In this document: positions 601 through 50,388 of the stretch, piece by piece
How positions within the stretch are numbered: the stretch's first letter is position 1
Layout: each line of letters begins with the position of its first letter
Assembly: GCA_016176505.1 (NCBI GenBank)
Contig: JACOXB010000008.1
Location: forward strand, 984-64,983
Origin: Candidatus Colwellbacteria bacterium
GTDB taxonomy: Bacteria; Patescibacteriota; Minisyncoccia; UBA6257; Colwellbacteraceae
Reading direction: 5' to 3'
DNA: 64,000 nucleotides
Program-made: the position numbers and the translations under genes
Notes under the pieces: generated by a model
Databases searched by the model: none
What the model saw: only the letters and a program-made list of their open reading frames with translations
What the model was told of the DNA's origin: nothing

Positions 601-1030
601 TTTCTTTTTGGCCGTGTTTAAATCGGAGCCAAATCGTGCCTTGGGGCAGAACCCGTCTCGCCCGATCAGCCCACTCAACAATGATAATATTTTCGGGATT
701 CGCAAGCGCCTCCTTAAGTCCAAATTTATAAAGTTCACCGGGTTTTTGGAGCCGGTAAACATCGAGGTGAAAAACATTTTTAAATCTCTTCCCTTTCGGC
801 AGGACTAATCTTCGCCACAAAAGAAAAGTAGGGCTCATTATTTTTCGCTTGATGCCCAGGGCGTGAATAAAAGCCCGAATAAAAGTGGTTTTACCAGCTC
901 CGAGCTCGCCTACAAGACCGAAAACCAAGGCCTGCTTTCCGGGCTTGGTTTTTAAAACTTCCTGGGCTAATGTCCGGGCTAAGGTTGCTGTCTTCGCTGG
1001 TGAGACCGAAACATAGCTCACTTTTTCCAT
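569..1030 (-). CDS. tsaE: tRNA t6A37 threonylcarbamoyladenosine biosynthesis protein TsaE (YjeE-like P-loop ATPase)
   Basis: 153 aa with the P-loop GLVGELGAGKTTF and TsaE-like length and composition. Confidence 0.75.
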   Translation of the reverse strand: MEKVSYVSVSPAKTATLARTLAQEVLKTKPGKQALVFGLVGELGAGKTTFIRAFIHALGIKRKIMSPTFLLWRRLVLPKGKRFKNVFHLDVYRLQKPGELYKFGLKEALANPENIIIVEWADRARRVLPQGTIWLRFKHGQKENERNLTLNRR

Positions 1031-1533
1031 TCTCCTAAAATATTATTTTTCAAAAGATAACCAATCCCCAGGCTAAGTAGAGCGGCCGGGACCAAGGCAA
1101 TAAAAACCGGATTAAAATTCCAATCAGTTTTGTTAATTTGACCAACTAAGTCTTCGTTTTCAATACTTGTCGCATCCCCGGCATTTCCAACGACTCCAAC
1201 ATCTCCGACATTTTGGACATATCGCGGCGCCACTATAATTTCATCTTCGCCGACTTGACCATAACTAAGCTCATCAGCAACCTTGCCTTGAGGATTTATT
1301 AAAACCAGCTTGTCGCCATCGTTATTCAAACTAATCCGGGTAAGACTATAGGGAAGAATGAGCTCTTCTTGGGGGCTGATTGTCCCGGAAAGATTAAAAG
1401 TTTTGCCGCTTGCGTCGTTAAAGCGCCAGCCTAAGAGATTAACTAACGAATCGCTATCGTTTATTAACTTCACCCACTCAGCTTCAGTATCCCGGCCAAC
1501 TGGGTTTGGTAAAACTTCTTTAAAGTAAGGCAT
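1018..1533 (-). CDS. Hypothetical protein with a C-terminal transmembrane anchor
   Basis: The ORF is 1018..1584. Start chosen at the internal Met (MPYFKE) to limit overlap with the ruvB stop. The C-terminus has a hydrophobic helix (FIALVPAALLSLGIGYLL). Confidence 0.4.
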   Translation of the reverse strand: MPYFKEVLPNPVGRDTEAEWVKLINDSDSLVNLLGWRFNDASGKTFNLSGTISPQEELILPYSLTRISLNNDGDKLVLINPQGKVADELSYGQVGEDEIIVAPRYVQNVGDVGVVGNAGDATSIENEDLVGQINKTDWNFNPVFIALVPAALLSLGIGYLLKNNILGEWKK

Positions 1534-2560
1534 TCTTATCCTGGCTCGTTTTAAGTCCCAGGTGCTCGAGGGCGGCTGGCTCAACTACTCTGCCGGCTGG
1601 TGTGCGCCGCAAAAATCCAAGCCGCATCAAGTAAGGCTCATAAACCTCTTCGATAATACCCTTATCTTCATTTAGAGCCGCGGCCACGGTACTTAAACCA
1701 ACCGGACCGCCACTGAATTTCTGACTAATGGTTTTAAGCAAAAGCCGATCGTGATTTTCAAGCCCTAAAGAATCGATTTCTAAGTACTCCAAAGTTTTCT
1801 CGGCAACGTTTTCGGTAATTTTATTCACACCATTCACCTGGGCATAGTCTCTGGCTCGCCGCAAAAGGCGATTAGCTGTTCTCGGCGTAAAGCGAGCCGC
1901 GAGGGCCAGGGTCCGGACAGCGCCCGACTCAATCTCAATGCCTAAAATTTTAGCTGACCGCTTAATAATCGCCTCAATATCTTCAAGTTCGTAATAATCA
2001 ATCTTAACCGTGGCGCCGAAACGGGAGCGAAGCGGAGAGGATAAAAGATTAATTCTTGTTGTCGCCGCAATTAAGGTAAAAGGCGGGAGATCAATCGAAA
2101 TAGTCCTTGCTCCTGGACCTTTGCCAATCACAATATGAAGCTTGCGGCTTTCCATAGCCGAATAGAGCACCTCCTCAATCAGCCGGTTCAAACGATGGGC
2201 CTCATCAATAAAAAGAATTTCATGGTGCTCAAGATTACTTAGAATAGCGGCTAAGTCGCCGGCCCGTTCGATCGCCGGCCCAGTGGTGGTCTTAATCGAG
2301 GCCGCCATTTCGCGAGCCACAAGCCGAGCTAAAGTGGTTTTCCCAAGACCGGCCTGACCGTAAAGCAAAAGGTGGTCAACCGGTTCGCCTCGATTTCGAG
2401 CCGCCTCAATAATAATCTGGAGGTTTCTTTTGATCTTCTCCTGACCAATATATTCTTCCCAGCGTTCTGGCCGGAGAAGCACATCAATTGCTTGATCCTC
2501 TTCGATTTTTCCCTCCCCGCCTGTTGGCGAAGCAGGTTTTTGCCTAGGTTTTCCCGCCAT
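1520..2560 (-). CDS. ruvB: Holliday junction branch migration helicase RuvB
   Basis: 346 aa with Walker A GQAGLGKTTLA and the full-length RuvB AAA+ pattern. Confidence 0.95.
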   Translation of the reverse strand: MAGKPRQKPASPTGGEGKIEEDQAIDVLLRPERWEEYIGQEKIKRNLQIIIEAARNRGEPVDHLLLYGQAGLGKTTLARLVAREMAASIKTTTGPAIERAGDLAAILSNLEHHEILFIDEAHRLNRLIEEVLYSAMESRKLHIVIGKGPGARTISIDLPPFTLIAATTRINLLSSPLRSRFGATVKIDYYELEDIEAIIKRSAKILGIEIESGAVRTLALAARFTPRTANRLLRRARDYAQVNGVNKITENVAEKTLEYLEIDSLGLENHDRLLLKTISQKFSGGPVGLSTVAAALNEDKGIIEEVYEPYLMRLGFLRRTPAGRVVEPAALEHLGLKTSQDKNALL

Positions 2561-5805: not shown

Positions 5806-8256
5806 GTGCTTAAAGACGCCTTTCGCTGGCTAGGACAAAAACGAGTCAAGACTCAGATCTTAATCGGCCTTGCCGGTTTAGTCTTAGCGGGCGGCATTTT
5901 TACTTTTCGGGTTTTTGCGAGTCTGCCCAAAACTGAGGAAATCGGCGAGCTTCGAGTTCCCGAATCAACTAAAATTTATGACCGGACTGACGAAACTCTG
6001 CTTTACGAAGTTTACGGTGAGGCTAAACGAACCGTTATCCCGCCTGACGAGATCCCGGACCGTTTGAGGCAAGCCACGATTGCGATTGAGGACAACTCGT
6101 TTTACAGCCATCCGGCTTTCGACTGGCGCGGCATTGTAAGAGCAGTCGGCGTCAATCTCTTACGGGGCGAGTTTGCCCAAGGCGGTTCAACTATTACCCA
6201 ACAGCTCGCAAGGAGCGCTTTTCTTACTTCGGAGAAAACTATTACTCGAAAAATCAAGGAGCTTGTTTTAGCTAATCGCCTAGAAAATGAATACAGCAAG
6301 GACGAAATCCTTGATCTTTATTTGAACCAGGTTTCTTATGGTCCGAATATTTATGGAGTCGAGACCGCTTCCCAGGCTTACTTTAACAAAGGCGCTAAGG
6401 ATTTAAGCCTGAACGAGGTTGTAACTTTGGTGGCTCTGCCCCGTTCGCCCAGTTATTACTCGCCTTGGGGTAATCATTTAAAAGAACTGGAAGATCGGAA
6501 AAACTTTATTGCCCGCCGGATGCGGGAGCTCGGTTATATTGACGAGGCTGAGCTTGCCTCAATCAACACGGTCCTACCCGAGATTGCCGAGCGACCTCGC
6601 GAAGGAATTAGGGCGCCGCACTTCTCCCTCTATATCCAGGATTATCTCCAGGAAAAATACGGCGAAGAAGCTTTGCAAAGAGAAGGCTTTAGGGTAACTA
6701 CGAGTCTTAGCTGGGAACTGCAAGAAATCGCCGAGGAAGCGGTAAAAAACGGGGTTGAAAGAAATGACCGGCTCTATGGCGGCTCAAACGGAGCTTTAGT
6801 CGCGATGGATCCTCAGACTGGTCAGATCTTGGCCTTAGTTGGTTCAAAAGACTATTTTGGCGATTCTAAGCCTGACGGCTGTGAAGAAGGCAGGACTTGC
6901 ACTTTTGAAGGCAATTTTAATGTGGCGATGCAGGGTCTAAGGCAGCCTGGTTCAGCGCTTAAGCCGTTTGCTTATCTCACTGCTTTTTCTAAAGGGCTCA
7001 CGCCCGAAACGATTGTTTGGGATGCGCCGACTGAATTTAATACTTCCTGCTCGACAAGTTTTACTCCGGGGGTAAGAACTCCTGGCTGTTATCATCCTTC
7101 TAACTTTGATGGCCTGTTCCGCGGACCAGTAATGTTTAAAGAGGGCTTGGCCCAATCAATCAACGTGCCATCGGTCAAGGTGCTTTATCTCGCTGGCCTC
7201 TACGACACTATCGATACTCTTTCGCGTTTCGGTATCACCACCTTAACTGATCCTAATCGCTATGGACTTTCTCTGGTGCTTGGCGGCGGTGAAATAAAAT
7301 TAATCGAACTGGTTGGGGCTTACTCAACCCTCGCGGCTGATGGAGTTTATCACGAACCGGTGACGATTCTAAAAATCGAAAACAATAAGGGTGAGGTGCT
7401 TGAAGAATATAAAGAGGAAGGGAATAAAGGCGAGAATGTAGTTGATCCCCAGCTTGCAAGACAAATTAATGACATTCTCTCAGACGTCTCGCTCCGAGCG
7501 CCGCTTTTCCACGCAAGCCTATCGCAGACTCAGGTACCCGGGTTTCAAGTGGCTTTAAAAACCGGAACCACTGATGACTATAAAGATGCTTGGGCTTTTG
7601 GTTACGCCCCGAATCTCGTAGTTGGCGTTTGGGCTGGCAACAACAATCGGATTTCTCTCCAAAGCCAGGGTTCGAGCATCCTGGCTGCTATTCCAATGTG
7701 GCATGATTTCATGTCAAAGGCTCTGCCTAAATTCCCAGCGGTTGGCTTTAACCATCCGGCGCCGACCCAAACCTCAAATCCAATTCTTCGGGGAGAACTG
7801 GTTGATGACGGTTTCCACAGTATTCTTTATTACCTTAATCGGGTAGGCGATTCCCAGTACTCGCACTGGGAAACCGGTATTAGAAATTGGCTCGCGACCC
7901 ACTCAGTTGATCTTTCTAGATTTAATGTAGTTGATGCGGGTGAAGGATTTGGTCCGGGCGAAGCTGGAGGTGAGGGTGAAATTAATCTCCGGATAGACGA
8001 ACCGGAGAATGGCGACTTTATTGACTCCGGTATCGCAATTAGCTTTAGGGCTGACTCCGAACGACCGATCAGTAAAATCGAGGTTTATTTTAACGACCGC
8101 TTGATAGCGACCGAATACGGCGACTTAGGTAAGAAGCCAAAATACGAAACGGTAATTAACCCGAAAAACATTGAACTCCAAAACTCGCTCGTAATTAGAG
8201 TGGTTGACGAAGAGGGGTTAAGAGAAGAGAGGGAGCTAATTCTTTACCGTAGGTAG
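5806..8256 (+). CDS. Class A penicillin-binding protein 1A (glycosyltransferase plus transpeptidase)
   Basis: 816 aa with a GTG start and an N-terminal TM helix. GT51 motifs (EDNSFYSHPAFD, QGGSTITQQLA) precede the transpeptidase motifs (SALKPF, KTGTT). Confidence 0.9.
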   Translation: MLKDAFRWLGQKRVKTQILIGLAGLVLAGGIFTFRVFASLPKTEEIGELRVPESTKIYDRTDETLLYEVYGEAKRTVIPPDEIPDRLRQATIAIEDNSFYSHPAFDWRGIVRAVGVNLLRGEFAQGGSTITQQLARSAFLTSEKTITRKIKELVLANRLENEYSKDEILDLYLNQVSYGPNIYGVETASQAYFNKGAKDLSLNEVVTLVALPRSPSYYSPWGNHLKELEDRKNFIARRMRELGYIDEAELASINTVLPEIAERPREGIRAPHFSLYIQDYLQEKYGEEALQREGFRVTTSLSWELQEIAEEAVKNGVERNDRLYGGSNGALVAMDPQTGQILALVGSKDYFGDSKPDGCEEGRTCTFEGNFNVAMQGLRQPGSALKPFAYLTAFSKGLTPETIVWDAPTEFNTSCSTSFTPGVRTPGCYHPSNFDGLFRGPVMFKEGLAQSINVPSVKVLYLAGLYDTIDTLSRFGITTLTDPNRYGLSLVLGGGEIKLIELVGAYSTLAADGVYHEPVTILKIENNKGEVLEEYKEEGNKGENVVDPQLARQINDILSDVSLRAPLFHASLSQTQVPGFQVALKTGTTDDYKDAWAFGYAPNLVVGVWAGNNNRISLQSQGSSILAAIPMWHDFMSKALPKFPAVGFNHPAPTQTSNPILRGELVDDGFHSILYYLNRVGDSQYSHWETGIRNWLATHSVDLSRFNVVDAGEGFGPGEAGGEGEINLRIDEPENGDFIDSGIAISFRADSERPISKIEVYFNDRLIATEYGDLGKKPKYETVINPKNIELQNSLVIRVVDEEGLREERELILYRR

Positions 8257-28512: not shown

Positions 28513-28764
28513 ATGGAAGAAAAACCAATTGGCGAAGTCACCCACTATTACTCTCACCTAGGGGTGGCGATTGTTAAGTTCAACCGGAAAGTGAAAACAG
28601 GTGAGACGGTTCACTTTAAAGGAGCCACCACTGATTTTACCCAAGCCATTGATTCAATGGAGTTTGATCACAAATCAGTTGGCGATGCTAAGTCCGGTCA
28701 AGAGGTCGGGATTAAAGTGGGCGACAAAGTGAGGGAGGGTGACGAAGTTTACGCGGTGGTATAA
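28513..28764 (+). CDS. Small beta-barrel protein (EF-Tu domain-2-like); hypothetical
   Basis: The ATG at 28513 is 1 nt after the LOG stop. The 83-aa product MEEKPIGEVTHYYSHLGVAIVKF...VGIKVGDKVREGDEVYAVV looks like a translation-factor beta-barrel. Confidence 0.5.
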   Translation: MEEKPIGEVTHYYSHLGVAIVKFNRKVKTGETVHFKGATTDFTQAIDSMEFDHKSVGDAKSGQEVGIKVGDKVREGDEVYAVV

Positions 28765-29895
28765 GGAGATAATTCTGCCAACCGGGCTCTTGGCCTCGAT
28801 GATTATTGGGGCCGGGATGTTTGCCCTGCCTTATGTTTTTCTGAAGGCCGGTTTTTTACTCGGCCTTTTTTACTTGGCTGTTTTTGCGGCTGTATTTTCG
28901 GCGATTCACTTAATGTATTTGCGGGTTATTAATGAAACCGAAGGCCGACATCGGTTTGTTGGTTATGCCCGAATTTACTTGGGGGATTTTGGCTTTTGGC
29001 TCGCGGTTTTAACAACCGTTATTGGTTTAACGCTTGTCCTCGTGGCTTACTTGATTCTGGGAGTCGATTTTTTGAAAATAGCTATTCCCTCGCTTTCAAG
29101 CTCTCTGGCTCTTTATCTTTTCTGGTTTACTGGGGTCGCCGCTGTTGTTTTTTCCCTGAAGCGTTTGGCGAACTTCGAGTTCTTAGTTGCGGTGGCTATG
29201 GTGGCTATTATTTTGATTCTTTTTGGTTTCAGTTTAAAAGCGCCTTCATTAACTTTGTCTCGATTTAATCCCACGGATTTTTTCCTGCCTTATGGCGTAG
29301 TTCTTTTCTCTTTGGCTGGTCGAGCTGCTATTTCTTCTTTGCGCGATTATTGGCAGGGGAGGGCGTTGCCGAAAAAAGGACTCCGGCGAGCAGTGGTTTT
29401 AGGGACGCTTATTCCAGCTCTCGCCTCCGGCGAGCAGTGGTTTTAGGGACGCTTATTCCAGCTCTCGCCTATCTTCTTTTTGTGATTGCCGTGATAGCTC
29501 TCTCGCCAACTGGCCCTACACCTGATGCGATTACCGGATTAAACTTCATTCCGCCGCCGCTTCTTATCCTAGTCGGCGTCCTCGGGGTTTTCAGTCTTTG
29601 GACTTCTTATTTTTTCCTAGGGACTGAGGTTAAAGATATTTTAATTTATGACCTTCGCTTGCCCGGATTTTTTGCTTTTATGCTCGCGAGTTTCGTGCCC
29701 CTGATTTTATTTTTCTTTGGTCTTAATAATTTCATTGGCCTTGTTGGCTTTATCGGCGGCGTTTTTCTGGCGCTCGAAAGCATTATGGTGGTTTTGATGT
29801 ATTTAAAGCTTCGCCATAAATCCGTTCTTTTATACTTGCCCCTGATTCTTGTTTTTCTCCTCGGCGCTCTTTATGAAATCTGGCGCTTCTTCTAA
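28739..29895 (+). pseudogene. Amino-acid permease (Mtr/TnaB/APC-like), split by a frameshifting 44-bp tandem duplication
   Basis: ORFs 28739..29446 and 29350..29895 overlap in different frames. Both read RRAVVLGTLIPALA across the duplicated 44-mer. Removing one copy restores one ~370-aa polytopic permease (IGAGMFALPYVF...). Confidence 0.6.
29382..29469 (+). repeat. Perfect 44-bp direct tandem duplication (2 copies)
   Basis: TCCGGCGAGCAGTGGTTTTAGGGACGCTTATTCCAGCTCTCGCC occurs at 29382-29425 and 29426-29469. Confidence 0.85.
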
Positions 29896-29896
29896 G

Positions 29897-29969
29897 TACG
29901 CCCGACTGGATTCGAACCAGTAGTCTTTGGCTCCGGAGGCCAACGCTTTATCCATTAAGCTACGGGCGC
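29897..29969 (-). tRNA. tRNA-Arg (anticodon CCG)
   Basis: Reverse strand GCGCCCGTAGCTTAATGGATAAAGCGTTGGCCTCCGGAGCCAAAGACTACTGGTTCGAATCCAGTCGGGCGTA folds as a cloverleaf with a 7-bp acceptor, a TTCGAAT T-loop and a CTCCGGA anticodon loop. Confidence 0.85.
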
Positions 29970-30071
29970 ATTCAGCTAAATACTAAGCAGGTTCCTCCCT
30001 CTTCGTCAAAATCTCGATTTTGTGACGAAGAGCAGTCCGCCGCAGGCGGAGATTCCTCTCGAGGGCGCAGC

Positions 30072-30101
30072 TTGACACTATTACATTGTTAGTGTTATAG
30101 A
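30072..30101 (+). promoter_or_regulatory. Sigma-70-like promoter: TTGACA, 17/18-nt spacer, TG-extended TTATAGA
   Basis: cTTGACActattacattgttagTGTTATAGa lies about 80 nt upstream of the GC-rich ORF at 30179. Confidence 0.35.
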
Positions 30102-30178
30102 ACTAGTATTACCAAAGCGGTAATCTGTTCGCGGAGGCGAAGCCCCGCAACAGCCCGAACCTCGAAAGGAGGCTTGCG

Positions 30179-30769
30179 ATGCGTCGCGTTACTCAGAAAT
30201 ACTTCCGGGAACTCCTAAGGGAGAAGCTCGGTCGGCAGTGGGCTCGCGCATTTCGTGTCTTCCGGAACTACGGCAAGAATCTGGGATGGGATGTGACGAA
30301 CGTCCTACTCCAGGCAGTGGACAAAGGCAAGGTAGGAGAGGTGCTCACGATCCTCGAGGAGCACTACGAGGACCACCTTCAGTACCAGCACCCAGACGTC
30401 CGCGGTCTCGTGGCTGGCGACCTCGGCGTGAACCTCACTCAGAGGATGTTCGTCGACATCTGCGAGAAGGTGCTCGAGCTCCAGCCAGATGATGGCAGCC
30501 GCGCACCCGCGGATCTGGCTACGCTGACGAAGGCGGATTCACCGATGCGCTTCCAGACCCAGACTTCGATCTACGAGATCGTGAGAGGGGTGGGGGGATT
30601 CGTCCTCCGCAAGCTCGAGGCCTCCGCTCCGAGCAAGATCCAGCCAGGAGACGGCCCGTTCCAAGGCGACAAGGTAGTGATCACCCAGAGTCGTCAGCTG
30701 GTGCTCTACGACGATGGCTACGTCGTGATGAACACGAGCCCGATCGCGAAGATCCTGACCAGGGTGTGA
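30179..30769 (+). CDS. Hypothetical protein encoded by a GC-rich (foreign-looking) cassette
   Basis: 196 aa with strong GC3 bias (GAG/CTC/GGC/CGC codons) against a ~45% GC background. A GAAAGGAGG ribosome-binding site sits 6 nt before the ATG. The stop is TGA, followed by a terminator. It lies ~200 bp from tRNA-Arg. Confidence 0.6.
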   Translation: MRRVTQKYFRELLREKLGRQWARAFRVFRNYGKNLGWDVTNVLLQAVDKGKVGEVLTILEEHYEDHLQYQHPDVRGLVAGDLGVNLTQRMFVDICEKVLELQPDDGSRAPADLATLTKADSPMRFQTQTSIYEIVRGVGGFVLRKLEASAPSKIQPGDGPFQGDKVVITQSRQLVLYDDGYVVMNTSPIAKILTRV

Positions 30770-30774
30770 CACCG

Positions 30775-30811
30775 GACCCGTGAGAAGATCCTCACGGGTC
30801 TTCTCATTTTT
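30775..30811 (+). terminator. Rho-independent terminator of the GC-rich cassette
   Basis: GACCCGTGAG-aagatc-CTCACGGGTC (10-bp stem) followed by TTCTCATTTTT. Confidence 0.6.
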
Positions 30812-30855
30812 AGATACAAAATTTACATCATCGATTAAGTCACCTTTTTAAGCGA

Positions 30856-30871
30856 TCGCTTAAAGTGGTGA
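30856..30871. promoter_or_regulatory. Perfect 16-bp palindrome TTAAGCGATCGCTTAA; candidate operator upstream of the kefB-like gene
   Basis: A perfect dyad flanked by further imperfect symmetry (tcacc...ggtga), about 90 bp upstream of the ATG at 30958. Confidence 0.3.
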
Positions 30872-30957
30872 TATATTTCCTGCCCAGAAAGGAACTTCCC
30901 TAACTGCGGCAGACAGGTTCTTGAGGAGATGGGGTTCGTTTGATAACCTTAAGCTAA

Positions 30958-32559
30958 ATGGATTTGCTGACTGAATTGGCCTTGGCCATAGTCCTCGCGG
31001 TTATTTTTGGTTTTATTACGCATCTTTTAAAACAACCGGTCATCATCGGTTTTCTTTTAGCCGGCGTTGCTTTTGGTTATCTCGAAGGCGTCTGGTTAAT
31101 TAATCCGCTTTCCTCGCCAATCGAAAGTTTAGCCTCCCTTGGCGTGATTTTTCTTTTGTTCCTGGTTGGGCTTGAGATGAATCTCCGCGAATTCAAGCAC
31201 TTGAGCTGGTCCGCGCTTTTACTCGGTGTCGGCCAGATATTTTTAACCTTCGGTTTAGGCTTCGGCCTCTCGCTTCTCCTTGGATTCTCGCTCGCCACCT
31301 CGGTTTACCTTGGCGGGGCGCTCACTTTTTCCTCAACCATTATCGTGGTCAAGCTCCTTTCGGACAAAGGCGATCTTCAGAGTCTTTACGGTCGGCTCGC
31401 AGTGGCTCTTTTAATTATTCAGGACTTTGCCGCGATTTTAGTACTCTTGTTCCTCACGAGTTCTCGGATTCTGCCTAAGATTCTTGATCTCGTCGCCCGC
31501 TCCCAAGAAATGCTTTATCTTTTCAGCCTAGCCTGGCTTTTAGGCGTCGCCCTCCTCGCCGTGGCATTCAATGTTTCGCTTGAGGCAGCCGGACTTTTAG
31601 CTGGTTTAGCTCTGGCTAATTCTTCCGAGCGTTTCCAGATGAGCGCTCGGCTCCGGCCTTTACGCGACTTCTTTATTATTCTTTTCTTTGTGGCTTTGGG
31701 CGCCGGATTGGTTCAGACGGAAATTGTTTTCCCCGTTGTCCCAACTCTCGCCTTTATCCTGTTTGTGCTTCTTTTAAAACCCCTGGTTATTCTTCTCGTG
31801 AACGGCTTCTTGGGTTATCGGGCCCGCACATCGTTTCTAACTAGCATCACGAGCACCCAGATTTCTGAGTTCAGTTTGATTATTGCGGTTTTAGGTTATC
31901 GCTTAGGTTATCTTGGACCAACCGAACTTTCACTCATCACCTTAGTTGGTCTTGTGACTATTTTCTTTTCTTCTTATTTTATTACTCACGGCGCCAAGTT
32001 ATATGAATTTTTAAAACCCTTGATTAAGCCTTTCGAATTCCGGAGCAAATTAATCAAAGAAGCGCAAATCGAATCTAAACTTGAAAACCACATTATCTTA
32101 GTCGGCGTTGACCGGATGGGTCGAAGCATTATCCGAGCCTTGAGCAATCAGGATGTTAATTTTGTAGCGCTTGATTTCGACCCGGTTATTATCAAAGAAC
32201 TTGAACGGATGAAAGTCCCAGTTGTCTACGGCGATATTACCGACAGCGATATCCAGGAAAAGATTGGTCTGACCAAAGCCAAGGTGGTTATCTCAACCGT
32301 GCCGGAGTTTGAAGACAATTTAGCGATTTTGCGAGCCACGAACCACAAGCGAAAAGGAATGAAGATAATCTTGACCGCTGAAGACGAGTGGCACGGCCGG
32401 GAACTTTATAAGGAAGGGGCTGACTATGTGCTTTTACCTCATTTCATCGGCGGCCAAGAGTTGGCCCAGATGATCAGCGCTAATCATAATTTTGCGAATC
32501 TTAAAGACTTAAAAGAGCGAGACCTTAAGCTGATTCGGGATTATACTTTAGTTAAATGA
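30958..32559 (+). CDS. Cation:proton antiporter (CPA2/KefB-like) with a C-terminal RCK/TrkA-N domain
   Basis: 533 aa with ~12 TM helices, then a Rossmann motif ILVGVDRMGRSI. Confidence 0.8.
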   Translation: MDLLTELALAIVLAVIFGFITHLLKQPVIIGFLLAGVAFGYLEGVWLINPLSSPIESLASLGVIFLLFLVGLEMNLREFKHLSWSALLLGVGQIFLTFGLGFGLSLLLGFSLATSVYLGGALTFSSTIIVVKLLSDKGDLQSLYGRLAVALLIIQDFAAILVLLFLTSSRILPKILDLVARSQEMLYLFSLAWLLGVALLAVAFNVSLEAAGLLAGLALANSSERFQMSARLRPLRDFFIILFFVALGAGLVQTEIVFPVVPTLAFILFVLLLKPLVILLVNGFLGYRARTSFLTSITSTQISEFSLIIAVLGYRLGYLGPTELSLITLVGLVTIFFSSYFITHGAKLYEFLKPLIKPFEFRSKLIKEAQIESKLENHIILVGVDRMGRSIIRALSNQDVNFVALDFDPVIIKELERMKVPVVYGDITDSDIQEKIGLTKAKVVISTVPEFEDNLAILRATNHKRKGMKIILTAEDEWHGRELYKEGADYVLLPHFIGGQELAQMISANHNFANLKDLKERDLKLIRDYTLVK

Positions 32560-35460: not shown

Positions 35461-35489
35461 TTGACAATGGCTTGACCGCGAGTTATAAT
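35461..35489 (+). promoter_or_regulatory. Perfect consensus sigma-70 promoter: TTGACA, 17-nt spacer, TATAAT
   Basis: TTGACA at 35461-66, 17-nt spacer, TATAAT at 35484-89. It points into GC-rich cassette 2. Confidence 0.5.
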
Positions 35490-35629
35490 TGTTGCGTAAA
35501 TTGTACCTTGAGAAAGTGGGCACTTGTGATTTAAAGAGGTCTTCACGCCCTAGCTTCTAAATTCTAGATTCTGGGAATTAAGGCGTGGAGACCTCACTAG
35601 GAGGTTTCCGAAACAGAAAGGAGCTGACC

Positions 35630-36166
35630 ATGTCGGATGACATGCTCGGCAAGGGCGCTCTGGCCGCGGTGGCCGGACCGCTCAAGGATTTCGCCGAGAG
35701 GCTCGCCGGATCAGACGGTCCGGAGTGACTCTCCGCTTTCAAGCGGTTCCTCCGCAAGGAGGAGGCGTGGGGTGCCATCCCCAACTTCTCCCGCGACATG
35801 AGAGAGGAGGGTTGGGAGCTCGTCGAGAGCATCGACGAGGAACCTGCCCCGGTCTCCAGGCTTGAGCTCGTCTCCTTCCTTAGGCGTGGCGAGAGCTACG
35901 TCTCGGGCGAGACGATGCGCGAGCGAGTCAGGGAGGAAGGGGCCAGCCTGGGCCAGCGCCAAGCTGAGTACCTACGCGTGCACCAGGAAGAGATCCCGTC
36001 CGAGTGGCGGGAATTCTACCTGGTTCTCCCAGGTACGGTCTGGCGTGACCGGGACGGCGACCTGTACGTTCCGTACCTCTACTGGCACGGCGGCAGGTGG
36101 TACATGCTCTTCCACCGGCTCGAGCGCGACTGGTACTCCAACGGCCGGCTCGTCAGTCGCAAGTAG
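35630..36166 (+). CDS. Hypothetical protein of GC-rich cassette 2, with an in-frame TGA at 35726-35728
   Basis: An AAAGGAG ribosome-binding site sits 6 nt before the ATG at 35630. A 32-codon ORF (MSDDMLGKGALAAVAGPLKDFAERLAGSDGPE) ends at the TGA and the same frame continues. High GC3 persists without a break through the TGA into ORF 35798..36166 (MREEGWELVESI...). The short alternative is a stand-alone 35798..36166. Confidence 0.4.
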
Positions 36167-36197
36167 CTTGCCCCTTGGACCCTTGGCCCTTGGGTCG

Positions 36198-36240
36198 GCC
36201 CTCGCGCGGTCAGTACGACGCGCGAGGGCTTCTAATTTTT
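36198..36240 (+). terminator. Rho-independent terminator of GC-rich cassette 2
   Basis: GCCCTCGCGCG-gtcagtacga-CGCGCGAGGGC (11-bp stem) followed by TTCTAATTTTT. Confidence 0.6.
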
Positions 36241-36256
36241 CTGGTCTATAATTACT

Positions 36257-50172: not shown

Positions 50173-50388
50173 CTAAACGCCAGCTGGCGGCGGGGGAGGA
50201 GTCGGTGGACCAACTGGCCCGCCTGGACTCGGCGAGGCTGGCGGTGCCGGAGCCGGAGGTTCAGAGGCTGGAGGTCCAGCCGGAGCCTCTGGTCCTGGTC
50301 CGCTCATTGGCTGCATTGGTACGCCGCATGTCGGGCAATTACCCGGTTCACTCGCGACATGACCACACTGAGGACATTTATATTCCAT
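50173..50388 (-). CDS. Zinc-ribbon protein with a Pro/Ala/Gly-rich tail
   Basis: MEYKCPQCGHVASEPGNCPTCG followed by a P-rich low-complexity tail. Its GC richness comes from Pro, Ala and Gly codons. Confidence 0.45.
   Translation of the reverse strand: MEYKCPQCGHVASEPGNCPTCGVPMQPMSGPGPEAPAGPPASEPPAPAPPASPSPGGPVGPPTPPPPPAGV

Follow-up and report, generated by a model that had tools for sequence, protein, structure and literature searches.

In a 64-kb stretch of the Candidatus Colwellbacteria contig JACOXB010000008.1 (hereafter the window; overall GC content 47.7%), an open reading frame (ORF) of 196 codons, ORF196, lies beside a tRNA-Arg(CCG) gene. The segment around it, from about position 30033 to about 30850, is probably a horizontally acquired, transcriptionally autonomous single-gene cassette that resembles the morons of phages and belongs to a family that circulates among Patescibacteria (also called the candidate phyla radiation, CPR). 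It has a foreign base composition and expression signals of its own, it corresponds to a block of about 530 bp that is conserved as a unit elsewhere, it occupies a chromosomal slot that varies among relatives, and its family prefers the vicinity of tRNA genes or pseudo-tRNAs. The gene is annotated as HYS89_01480, a hypothetical protein, in a Candidatus Colwellbacteria metagenome-assembled genome (MAG), and stands among a permease gene, the tRNA gene, a Na+/H+ exchanger-TrkA (Kef-type) gene and a Clp ATPase gene. The CPR bacteria have tiny genomes and their gain of genes is poorly understood; the cassette offers a concrete handle on single-gene transfer in this group, as a recurrent promoter-to-terminator unit that is found mostly by tRNA genes or pseudogenes and comes without a recombinase.

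Composition and expression signals

A first-pass annotation had described an autonomous single-gene unit of foreign composition at this place, its codons ending overwhelmingly in G or C against an AT-richer background, and calculation bears this out. The GC content at third codon positions (GC3) of ORF196 is 0.78 vs 0.477 +/- 0.039 in the 48 other long ORFs of the window, which places the gene at +7.7 standard deviations, and both domains of the encoded protein are GC-rich (Table 1). The values for the three codon positions (GC1/2/3 = 0.65/0.37/0.78) have the frame signature of real coding sequence.

The expression signals are mostly as they had been read by eye. The ribosome-binding site GAAAGGAGG is present at 30164-30172, and this 9-mer occurs only twice in the 64 kb, each time ahead of a GC-rich ORF (ORF196 and the ORF of cassette 3, described below). 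The intrinsic terminator has a stem of 10-11 bp and a T-run (30774-30801); its folding energy is -21.9 kcal/mol (z = -4.4), a stability that is reached by 0 of 200 shuffles. The promoter is less clear-cut: TTGACA, an 18-nt spacer, the TG and TATAGA are all present, but the -10 box is imperfect (position 6 is not T) and a strict consensus scan missed it. The window promoter aligns in position with the conserved TTGACA-N18-TAGAAT of family cassettes in other hosts. The fold of the 5' untranslated region (UTR) of ORF196 alone is not significant (z = -1.5), the leader RNA has no match in Rfam, and RNAalifold on seven family leaders gave only a 4-bp stem over the ribosome-binding site, without covariation.

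The conserved unit in other genomes

A word-indexed search yielded only two half-length relatives of ORF196, and an exhaustive HMMER scan of 1.84 billion representatives yielded 137 cluster representatives at E<=1e-3. The matches cover residues 1-105 of ORF196 with E-values from 1e-27 to 1e-3, and nearly all members of the family are about 105-110 amino acids (aa) long. What is conserved at the DNA level is more than the ORF, as a unit that includes both promoter and terminator and measures about 530 bp recurs in unrelated flanks with a nucleotide homology of 72-86%. The similarity sets in near the -35 box and takes in a leader hairpin, the motif GAACCTTGAAAGGAGG, the ORF and its terminator; it stops about 120 nt past the stop codon. 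In L092, L093/94, L096 and L097 (the L numbers denote the loci compared) the start codon is preceded by GAACCTTGAAAGGAGG, and L095, L100 and L103 have variants of this motif. The window copy has kept the promoter position and the ribosome-binding motif, and is more diverged.

The units are found in different slots: between SmpB and IF3 genes (L087), between rpsG and fusA (L090, L091), between MiaA and a tRNA gene (L001), and behind tRNA genes in L092, L094, L100, L102 and L103; members also occur on 19 metagenome contigs. The local gene order in L087 and L007 resembles that of the window. The homologues whose surroundings were examined lie among housekeeping genes, two of them in a gene order like that of the window, and nothing indicated the Actinobacterial source that had been envisaged at first. 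No phage, viral or plasmid homologue was found in two IMG/VR scans, in INPHARED, in BFVD or by tblastn against phages and plasmids, and a phage or plasmid origin was set aside on the zero matches in IMG/VR and in the phage and plasmid sets.

The family genes are often GC-rich in hosts that are poorer in GC. GC3 is well above that of the host in L001, L094, L100, L102 and L103, and in L095, L097, L105 and L109 the gene is richer in GC than the contig around it. In L099, L101, L104 and L106-108, which are low in GC, and in L087, L098 and L110, which are high in GC, the composition is native-like. Fully AT-rich members (GC3 0.25-0.38) are present in L099, L101, L104, L106 and L108, so that GC-richness is no inherent property of the family. 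Some hosts have a GC content of 55-64% and are possible donors, and one homologue host with a window-like gene order has a matching native GC3 of about 0.75.

Association with tRNA genes

A tRNA gene lies at most 350 nt away in seven of the ten GC-rich family loci with sufficient flank, vs 2.6% of the sequence in 1.03 Mb of background loci (P ~1e-9, less extreme if some of the sites are orthologous). The tRNAs are Arg-CCG, Ala-GGC, Leu-TAG, Leu-CAA, Leu-GAG and Leu-TAA (the last twice). In the window, the tRNA-Arg(CCG) gene ends at 29969 as first annotated; ARAGORN and Rfam both place it on the minus strand, which had not been stated, so that the cassette lies at the 5' side of the tRNA, 103 bp from the 5' end of the intact gene. 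The tRNA-Arg(CCG) gene is thus inverted in the window, as it stands on the strand of the Kef-type gene in L007, L012, L014 and L025.

Directly before the cassette, and ending 3 bp ahead of its -35 box, a plus-strand segment (30033-30069) can be aligned to the tRNA-Arg of relatives, at its anticodon arm and its 3' end, with about 12 nt of the T-arm missing. The relic of the anticodon arm is a 6-bp hairpin at 30036-30050, and the T-arm and acceptor 3' strand correspond to 30051-30066. Judging from the alignment, this hairpin, TCCGCCGCAGGCGGA, probably belongs to a degenerate copy of tRNA-Arg on the plus strand. Of the 16 nt of GATTCCTCTCGAGGGC (30051-30066), 15 agree with the 3' end of the L014 tRNA-Arg; the match is the sole one in the window, with 0.04 expected, and in local alignments of the pseudo-tRNA 0-10 of 300 shuffles reach the score. 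The T-arm of the relic is nearer to the tRNA of L007 than the working inverted tRNA of the window is, which suggests that the plus strand carries the ancestral copy.

Between the two tRNA copies lies a palindrome, CTCTTCGTCAAAA/TTGTGACGAAGAG, that may be a rearrangement junction and whose right arm aligns with the D-arm region of the tRNA-Arg of relatives. Together, the inverted tRNA-Arg, the plus-strand pseudo-copy and this palindrome indicate a local rearrangement. As a repeated recombination site the palindrome was rejected, being present in a single copy in the window. The two hairpins between tRNA and cassette had at first been placed at 30026-30062 and 30043-30057; their real positions are 29999-30032 and 30036-30050, off by 7-27 nt.

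In L094 (1405-2240), a cassette 98% identical to that of L093 abuts an intact tRNA-Leu(CAA), and the homology between the two starts within the L094 tRNA-Leu, 6 nt from its 3' end. In L093 pseudo-tRNA-Leu copies in inverted orientation stand on both sides of the cassette, and another cassette comes after it. The L093 contig (1-1731) carries the family gene at 372-695, followed from 1242 by a lipoprotein-like gene with a similar leader motif, and its 71-nt inverted repeats at 8-78 and 929-999 are the degenerate tRNA-Leu copies. Moreover, the 13-nt palindrome CCGCCGCAGGCGG (CCGCC-GCA/TGC-GGCGG) is found at 30037 in the window, at 63 and 932 in L093 and at 671 in L095, all of them cassette borders, and nowhere in the 1.03 Mb of background loci. 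As the occurrences in L093 and L095 are inside pseudo-tRNA-Leu copies, common descent with the copy in the window is unproven, and the recurrence reflects either common descent or the convergence of decayed tRNA arms.

These patterns would fit a non-autonomous satellite that lacks an integrase of its own and is moved by a tRNA-targeting tyrosine integrase encoded elsewhere (by a phage, an integrative and conjugative element or the chromosome), the pseudo-tRNAs being att scars of successive integrations. The closeness of family members to tRNA genes, the start of the L094/L093 homology within a tRNA, the tandem cassettes of L093 with pseudo-tRNA-Leu copies between them and the partial tRNA-Arg copy abutting the window promoter all speak for this explanation, which I nevertheless regard as doubtful. 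No integrase was found within about 5 kb on either side of the cassette, the part of the window to which the domain-by-domain scan was confined, and seven family loci have no direct repeat of a tRNA 3' fragment of at least 9 nt at the far end. Both in the window and in L093 the tRNA copies stand in opposite orientations rather than as direct repeats, the pseudo-tRNA of L093 is full length rather than a 3' core, and the family uses varied tRNAs (Arg, Ala and four Leu isoacceptors). The reading of the tRNA as an integration target stands in part: the link with tRNA genes is there, in the seven of ten loci and the pseudo-tRNA-Arg, but classical integration by an integrase is not supported by a locus with no integrase within 5 kb, no distal repeat and an inverted tRNA. 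A direct repeat of tRNA-Arg, which the first-pass annotation had proposed to look for downstream of 30815, does not occur beyond 30770; the degenerate copy is upstream instead. A 12-nt match at 30952-30963 was rejected as a distal repeat, being at chance level.

The chromosomal slot and the persistence of high GC

Related loci were recovered by a scan with the neighbouring Kef-type gene. In L007, a member of the Colwellbacteria and the closest relative compared, the flanking proteins are 53-78% identical and the gene order is conserved (beta-CASP RNase, SLOG, 86-aa ORF, permease, tRNA-Arg, slot, Kef). The slot between tRNA-Arg and Kef holds an unrelated 135-aa ORF there, with a GC3 of 0.73 and no leader similarity to ORF196. 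In L012 and L014 the slot holds genes of ordinary GC and in L025 it is empty; the slot is variable among relatives.

Alternatively, ORF196 could be a long-resident accessory gene, its GC-richness being actively maintained, for instance through selection at the mRNA or codon level or through recurrent gene conversion with a GC-rich pool as the source. The argument for this comes from several distinct GC-rich cassettes per genome and from cassette 2 of the window (Table 1), which sits in the same slot between ClpB and PolX in the window and in L007 and has a GC3 of 0.78-0.84 in both. Over the leader and the first 52 codons its identity to the L007 copy is 70-73%, against 66-76% for housekeeping genes, so this part has diverged like housekeeping genes and yet has stayed GC-rich; the C-terminal halves are unrelated. 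However, I consider long residence of ORF196 improbable, as the slot of ORF196 in L007 holds an unrelated gene, members of the family in low-GC hosts are AT-rich, and homologous promoter-to-terminator blocks stand in unrelated flanks.

It is very improbable that ORF196 is a native, highly expressed gene with C- and G-ending codons due to translational selection. The strong ribosome-binding site, the promoter, the terminator and the preference for C-ending two-fold codons would be expected of such a gene, but the genes for L20, L35, IF3 and SmpB have a GC3 of only 0.45-0.57, so that codon bias linked to expression is not the cause of the GC3 of ORF196. AAG, GAG and CAG are favoured too, as GC pressure predicts, and the gene is patchily distributed in a variable slot. 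An assembly chimera or a binning contaminant, as sharp GC boundaries in a MAG might suggest, is for practical purposes ruled out by five Logan contigs, assembled independently from five sequencing runs, that are 100% identical across both junctions, and is also at odds with the presence of two more cassettes of like build in the window.

Proposed origin

The explanation that I favour is the horizontally acquired cassette. The unit would be a fairly recent arrival whose donor, or donor replicon, was of the CPR type and had a GC content of about 55-64%, and it would have landed directly behind an ancestral plus-strand tRNA-Arg that has since decayed, the inverted copy at 29896-29969 now doing its work. 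The tRNA gene could have served as a landing pad, either for a site-specific recombinase supplied in trans or for recombination anchored in tRNA homology after DNA uptake. The absence of an integrase near the locus, the absence of distal repeats and the inverted tRNA copies make a neat fit to neither textbook model. Once in place, the cassette would be transcribed alone from the TTGACA promoter and insulated by its terminator, and with a promoter and an insulating terminator of its own it would leave the Kef-type neighbour undisturbed.

Several points weigh against a recent acquisition of this kind. The site holds an unrelated gene in L007 and is empty in L025; among the genomes compared there is no same-genus relative with an empty site, and the nearest one, L007, has a protein identity of only 55-65%. 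No donor emerged from the comparison. Three of the ten GC-rich members (L096, L097 and L105) have no tRNA nearby, the -10 box of the window promoter is weak, and Infernal makes no tRNA call at 30033-30069, so that the pseudo-tRNA is a call at the level of the alignment. No integrase, target duplication or terminal repeats were found, and the mobility of the unit is therefore argued from comparison only. Finally, cassette 2 is GC-rich in both the window and L007 despite its housekeeping-level divergence; GC-richness may thus persist or be renewed, and is no clock on its own.

A more far-reaching proposal would be that the ORF196 family, and perhaps other GC-rich cassettes, form a distinct class of minimal mobile elements of the CPR, of about 0.5-0.8 kb and without recombinase or terminal repeats, which use tRNA genes as landing pads or carry tRNA copies, are replenished from a GC-rich reservoir (for example a CPR plasmid or phage) and leave tRNA pseudogenes and inverted copies behind. 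I think this unlikely. If the transfer was a matter of ordinary illegitimate recombination, the locus is a well-documented example of known gene transfer.

Comparison with known mobile units

Morons are reportedly autonomous promoter-ORF-terminator units inserted between prophage genes. The locus shares with them a promoter of its own (at the level of sequence), a factor-independent terminator of its own and a foreign base composition: like a moron, the cassette is a single gene with its own promoter and terminator between unrelated genes that are undisrupted, its composition is unlike that of its surroundings, and the whole unit is conserved rather than the ORF alone. Unlike a moron, it is located in a cellular chromosome among housekeeping genes and not in a prophage, it has no homologue in IMG/VR, INPHARED or BFVD, and its family is strongly tRNA-proximal, which is not a moron trait.

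The tRNA islands of tyrosine integrases offer a second comparison, as the cassette adjoins a tRNA gene, has a partial tRNA copy at its junction and is of foreign composition, and as the cassettes of L093 stand in tandem behind a tRNA. However, the cassette is only about 0.8 kb long with a single cargo gene, there is no integrase nearby, there are no direct att repeats at the far end, and the intact tRNA is inverted. Like an integron cassette, it is a mobile unit of one gene that lacks a recombinase of its own, and arrays are possible (L093). In contrast to these, it has its own promoter and Rho-independent terminator, the three cassettes of the window share no imperfect palindrome like attC, and no integron integrase is nearby. 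In its working the cassette resembles a moron and in its position a tRNA islet, but it fails the tests that define a prophage moron, an integrase island and an integron cassette. It is a gene transfer of an already known kind, with some unusual details.

Individually transferred genes, exchanged mostly between Patescibacteria, are reported in a published study (PMC12455944). The cassette agrees with these transfers in being a single gene brought into a streamlined CPR genome and in having relatives in genomes of similar local gene order. It differs in that promoter-to-terminator units, proximity to tRNA genes and the ORF196 family are not described in the part available.

The encoded protein

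The family to which ORF196 belongs has invariant or nearly invariant residues at D38, N41, K51, E60, H62, Q70, H71, P72, R75, G76, N85, T87 and C95, and ORF196 shows a full domain match and the motifs D-V-T-N-V-L, E-x-H and Q-H-P-x-x-R-G. This conserved cluster of polar, His and Cys residues may form a site for catalysis or for the binding of a ligand or a metal. An AlphaFold2 model built on the family alignment predicts a four-helix domain with a predicted local distance difference test score (pLDDT) of 96-98, and a poorly defined beta region with low-confidence strands for the C-terminal 90 residues. There were zero profile matches to ORF196 in Pfam, NCBIfam, PHROGs and PADLOC, and zero matches among PDB sequences or by Foldseek against PDB and BFVD. 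The family is widespread, consists of small proteins and has neither a Pfam model nor a match in the fold libraries searched; it is a candidate for structural and functional study.

Other members bear different N- or C-terminal additions, which makes the helical domain a module. The C-terminal extension of ORF196 (residues 106-196) has zero convincing homologues among the 1.84 billion representatives; one match, P0033, was reported as reaching query residue 169. A relationship with the extensions of P0008, P0052 and L108 was rejected, as neither BLAST nor hhalign was significant. I propose that the protein is a dispensable accessory factor in which the conserved helical domain is fused to a lineage-specific, beta-rich domain, and a role in conflict or host interaction would be a guess.

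Layout of the locus and other GC-rich genes

The features of the locus and of the two other cassettes are listed in Table 1. The promoter-like site on the minus strand is placed to drive the tRNA-Arg gene and is a putative promoter for it.

Table 1. Positions of the cassette, the tRNA copies and the further GC-rich cassettes in the window.
Feature	Position	Strand	Remarks
Intact tRNA-Arg(CCG)	29896-29969	minus	ARAGORN and Rfam
Promoter-like TTGACG-18-TAGTAT	29980-30009	minus	consensus scan, 9/12 matches; ends about 10 nt before tRNA 5' end
13-8-13 palindrome CTCTTCGTCAAAA/TTGTGACGAAGAG	29999-30032		between the two tRNA copies
Degenerate partial tRNA-Arg(CCG) copy (probable)	30033-30069	plus	alignment to tRNA-Arg of relatives
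Cassette promoter	30072-30101	plus	-35 TTGACA 30072-30077, 18-nt spacer, TG 30093-30094, -10 TATAGA 30096-30101
5' UTR, 77 nt	30102-30178	plus	hairpins 30108-30124 and 30125-30153
GAACCTCGAAAGGAGG, conserved in family	30157-30172	plus	includes ribosome-binding site
Ribosome-binding site GAAAGGAGG	30164-30172	plus	6 nt upstream of ATG
ORF196, 196 aa	30179-30769	plus	GC 0.60
ORF196 codons 1-105, predicted four-helix domain	30179-30493	plus	family conservation; GC3 0.74
ORF196 codons 106-196 and stop, orphan extension, predicted beta-rich	30494-30769	plus	GC3 0.82
Intrinsic terminator	30774-30811	plus	10-11 bp GC-rich stem, 6-nt loop, tail TCTCATTTTT
Candidate 3' end of transferred unit	30812-30850	plus	weak similarity to post-terminator block of other family cassettes; boundary uncertain
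Cassette 2	35461-36250	plus	perfect TTGACA-17-TATAAT, 140-nt leader, ORF 35630-36166 with GC3 0.84, terminator
Cassette 3	40027-40870	plus	TTGACA, leader hairpin, GAAAGGAGG, 202-aa ORF 40202-40810 with GC3 0.71, terminator

The three cassettes of the window have the codon choice ATC, TAC, AAG, GAG and CTC in common, unlike that of the host. They have no common flanking repeats or leader homology; only the promoter and the ribosome-binding-site consensus are common to them. Cassette 3, the leader hairpin of which has a folding energy of -76.6 kcal/mol (z = -7.5), sits between the IF3 and SmpB genes, the slot that in L087 holds a member of the ORF196 family, and a homologue search with it returned only itself. 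The ORF of cassette 2 has an in-frame TGA at 35726-35728, aligned to a Trp codon of the L007 homologue, which is either a nonsense mutation in a decaying gene or subject to read-through.

There is no general excess of GC-rich outliers in the CPR and DPANN loci (13 high vs 12 low among 869 ORFs). Other GC-rich genes in AT-richer CPR contigs are found at 949-1695 (minus) in L102, 2354-4309 (plus) in L100 and 7485-7892 (plus) in L007, and comprise a sigma-70-like ORF between tRNA-Leu and tRNA-Val, a helicase-like ORF and the unrelated 135-aa ORF behind the tRNA-Arg of L007.

A palindrome of 16+16 nt, TCACCTTTTTAAGCGA/TCGCTTAAAGTGGTGA, lies at 30840-30871 between the cassette terminator and the Kef-type gene. 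On the other side of the cassette, the amino-acid permease gene beside the tRNA consists of two overlapping plus-strand ORFs, 28739-29446 and 29350-29895; its orthologue in L007 is a single 371-aa ORF, and the split is either a frameshift (pseudogene) or an assembly error. In the Kef-type gene, three independently assembled contigs (L002-L004) have 84 extra nt at 31461/31462, and the Kef-type protein of L007 has about 28 extra residues at the matching point, so that the window represents either a deletion variant or an assembly gap. A GC-rich 71-aa ORF at 50173-50388 on the minus strand, between glutaredoxin and thioredoxin-reductase genes, encodes two CPxC pairs like those of a zinc ribbon and a Pro-rich tail; its high GC content may reflect its amino-acid content.

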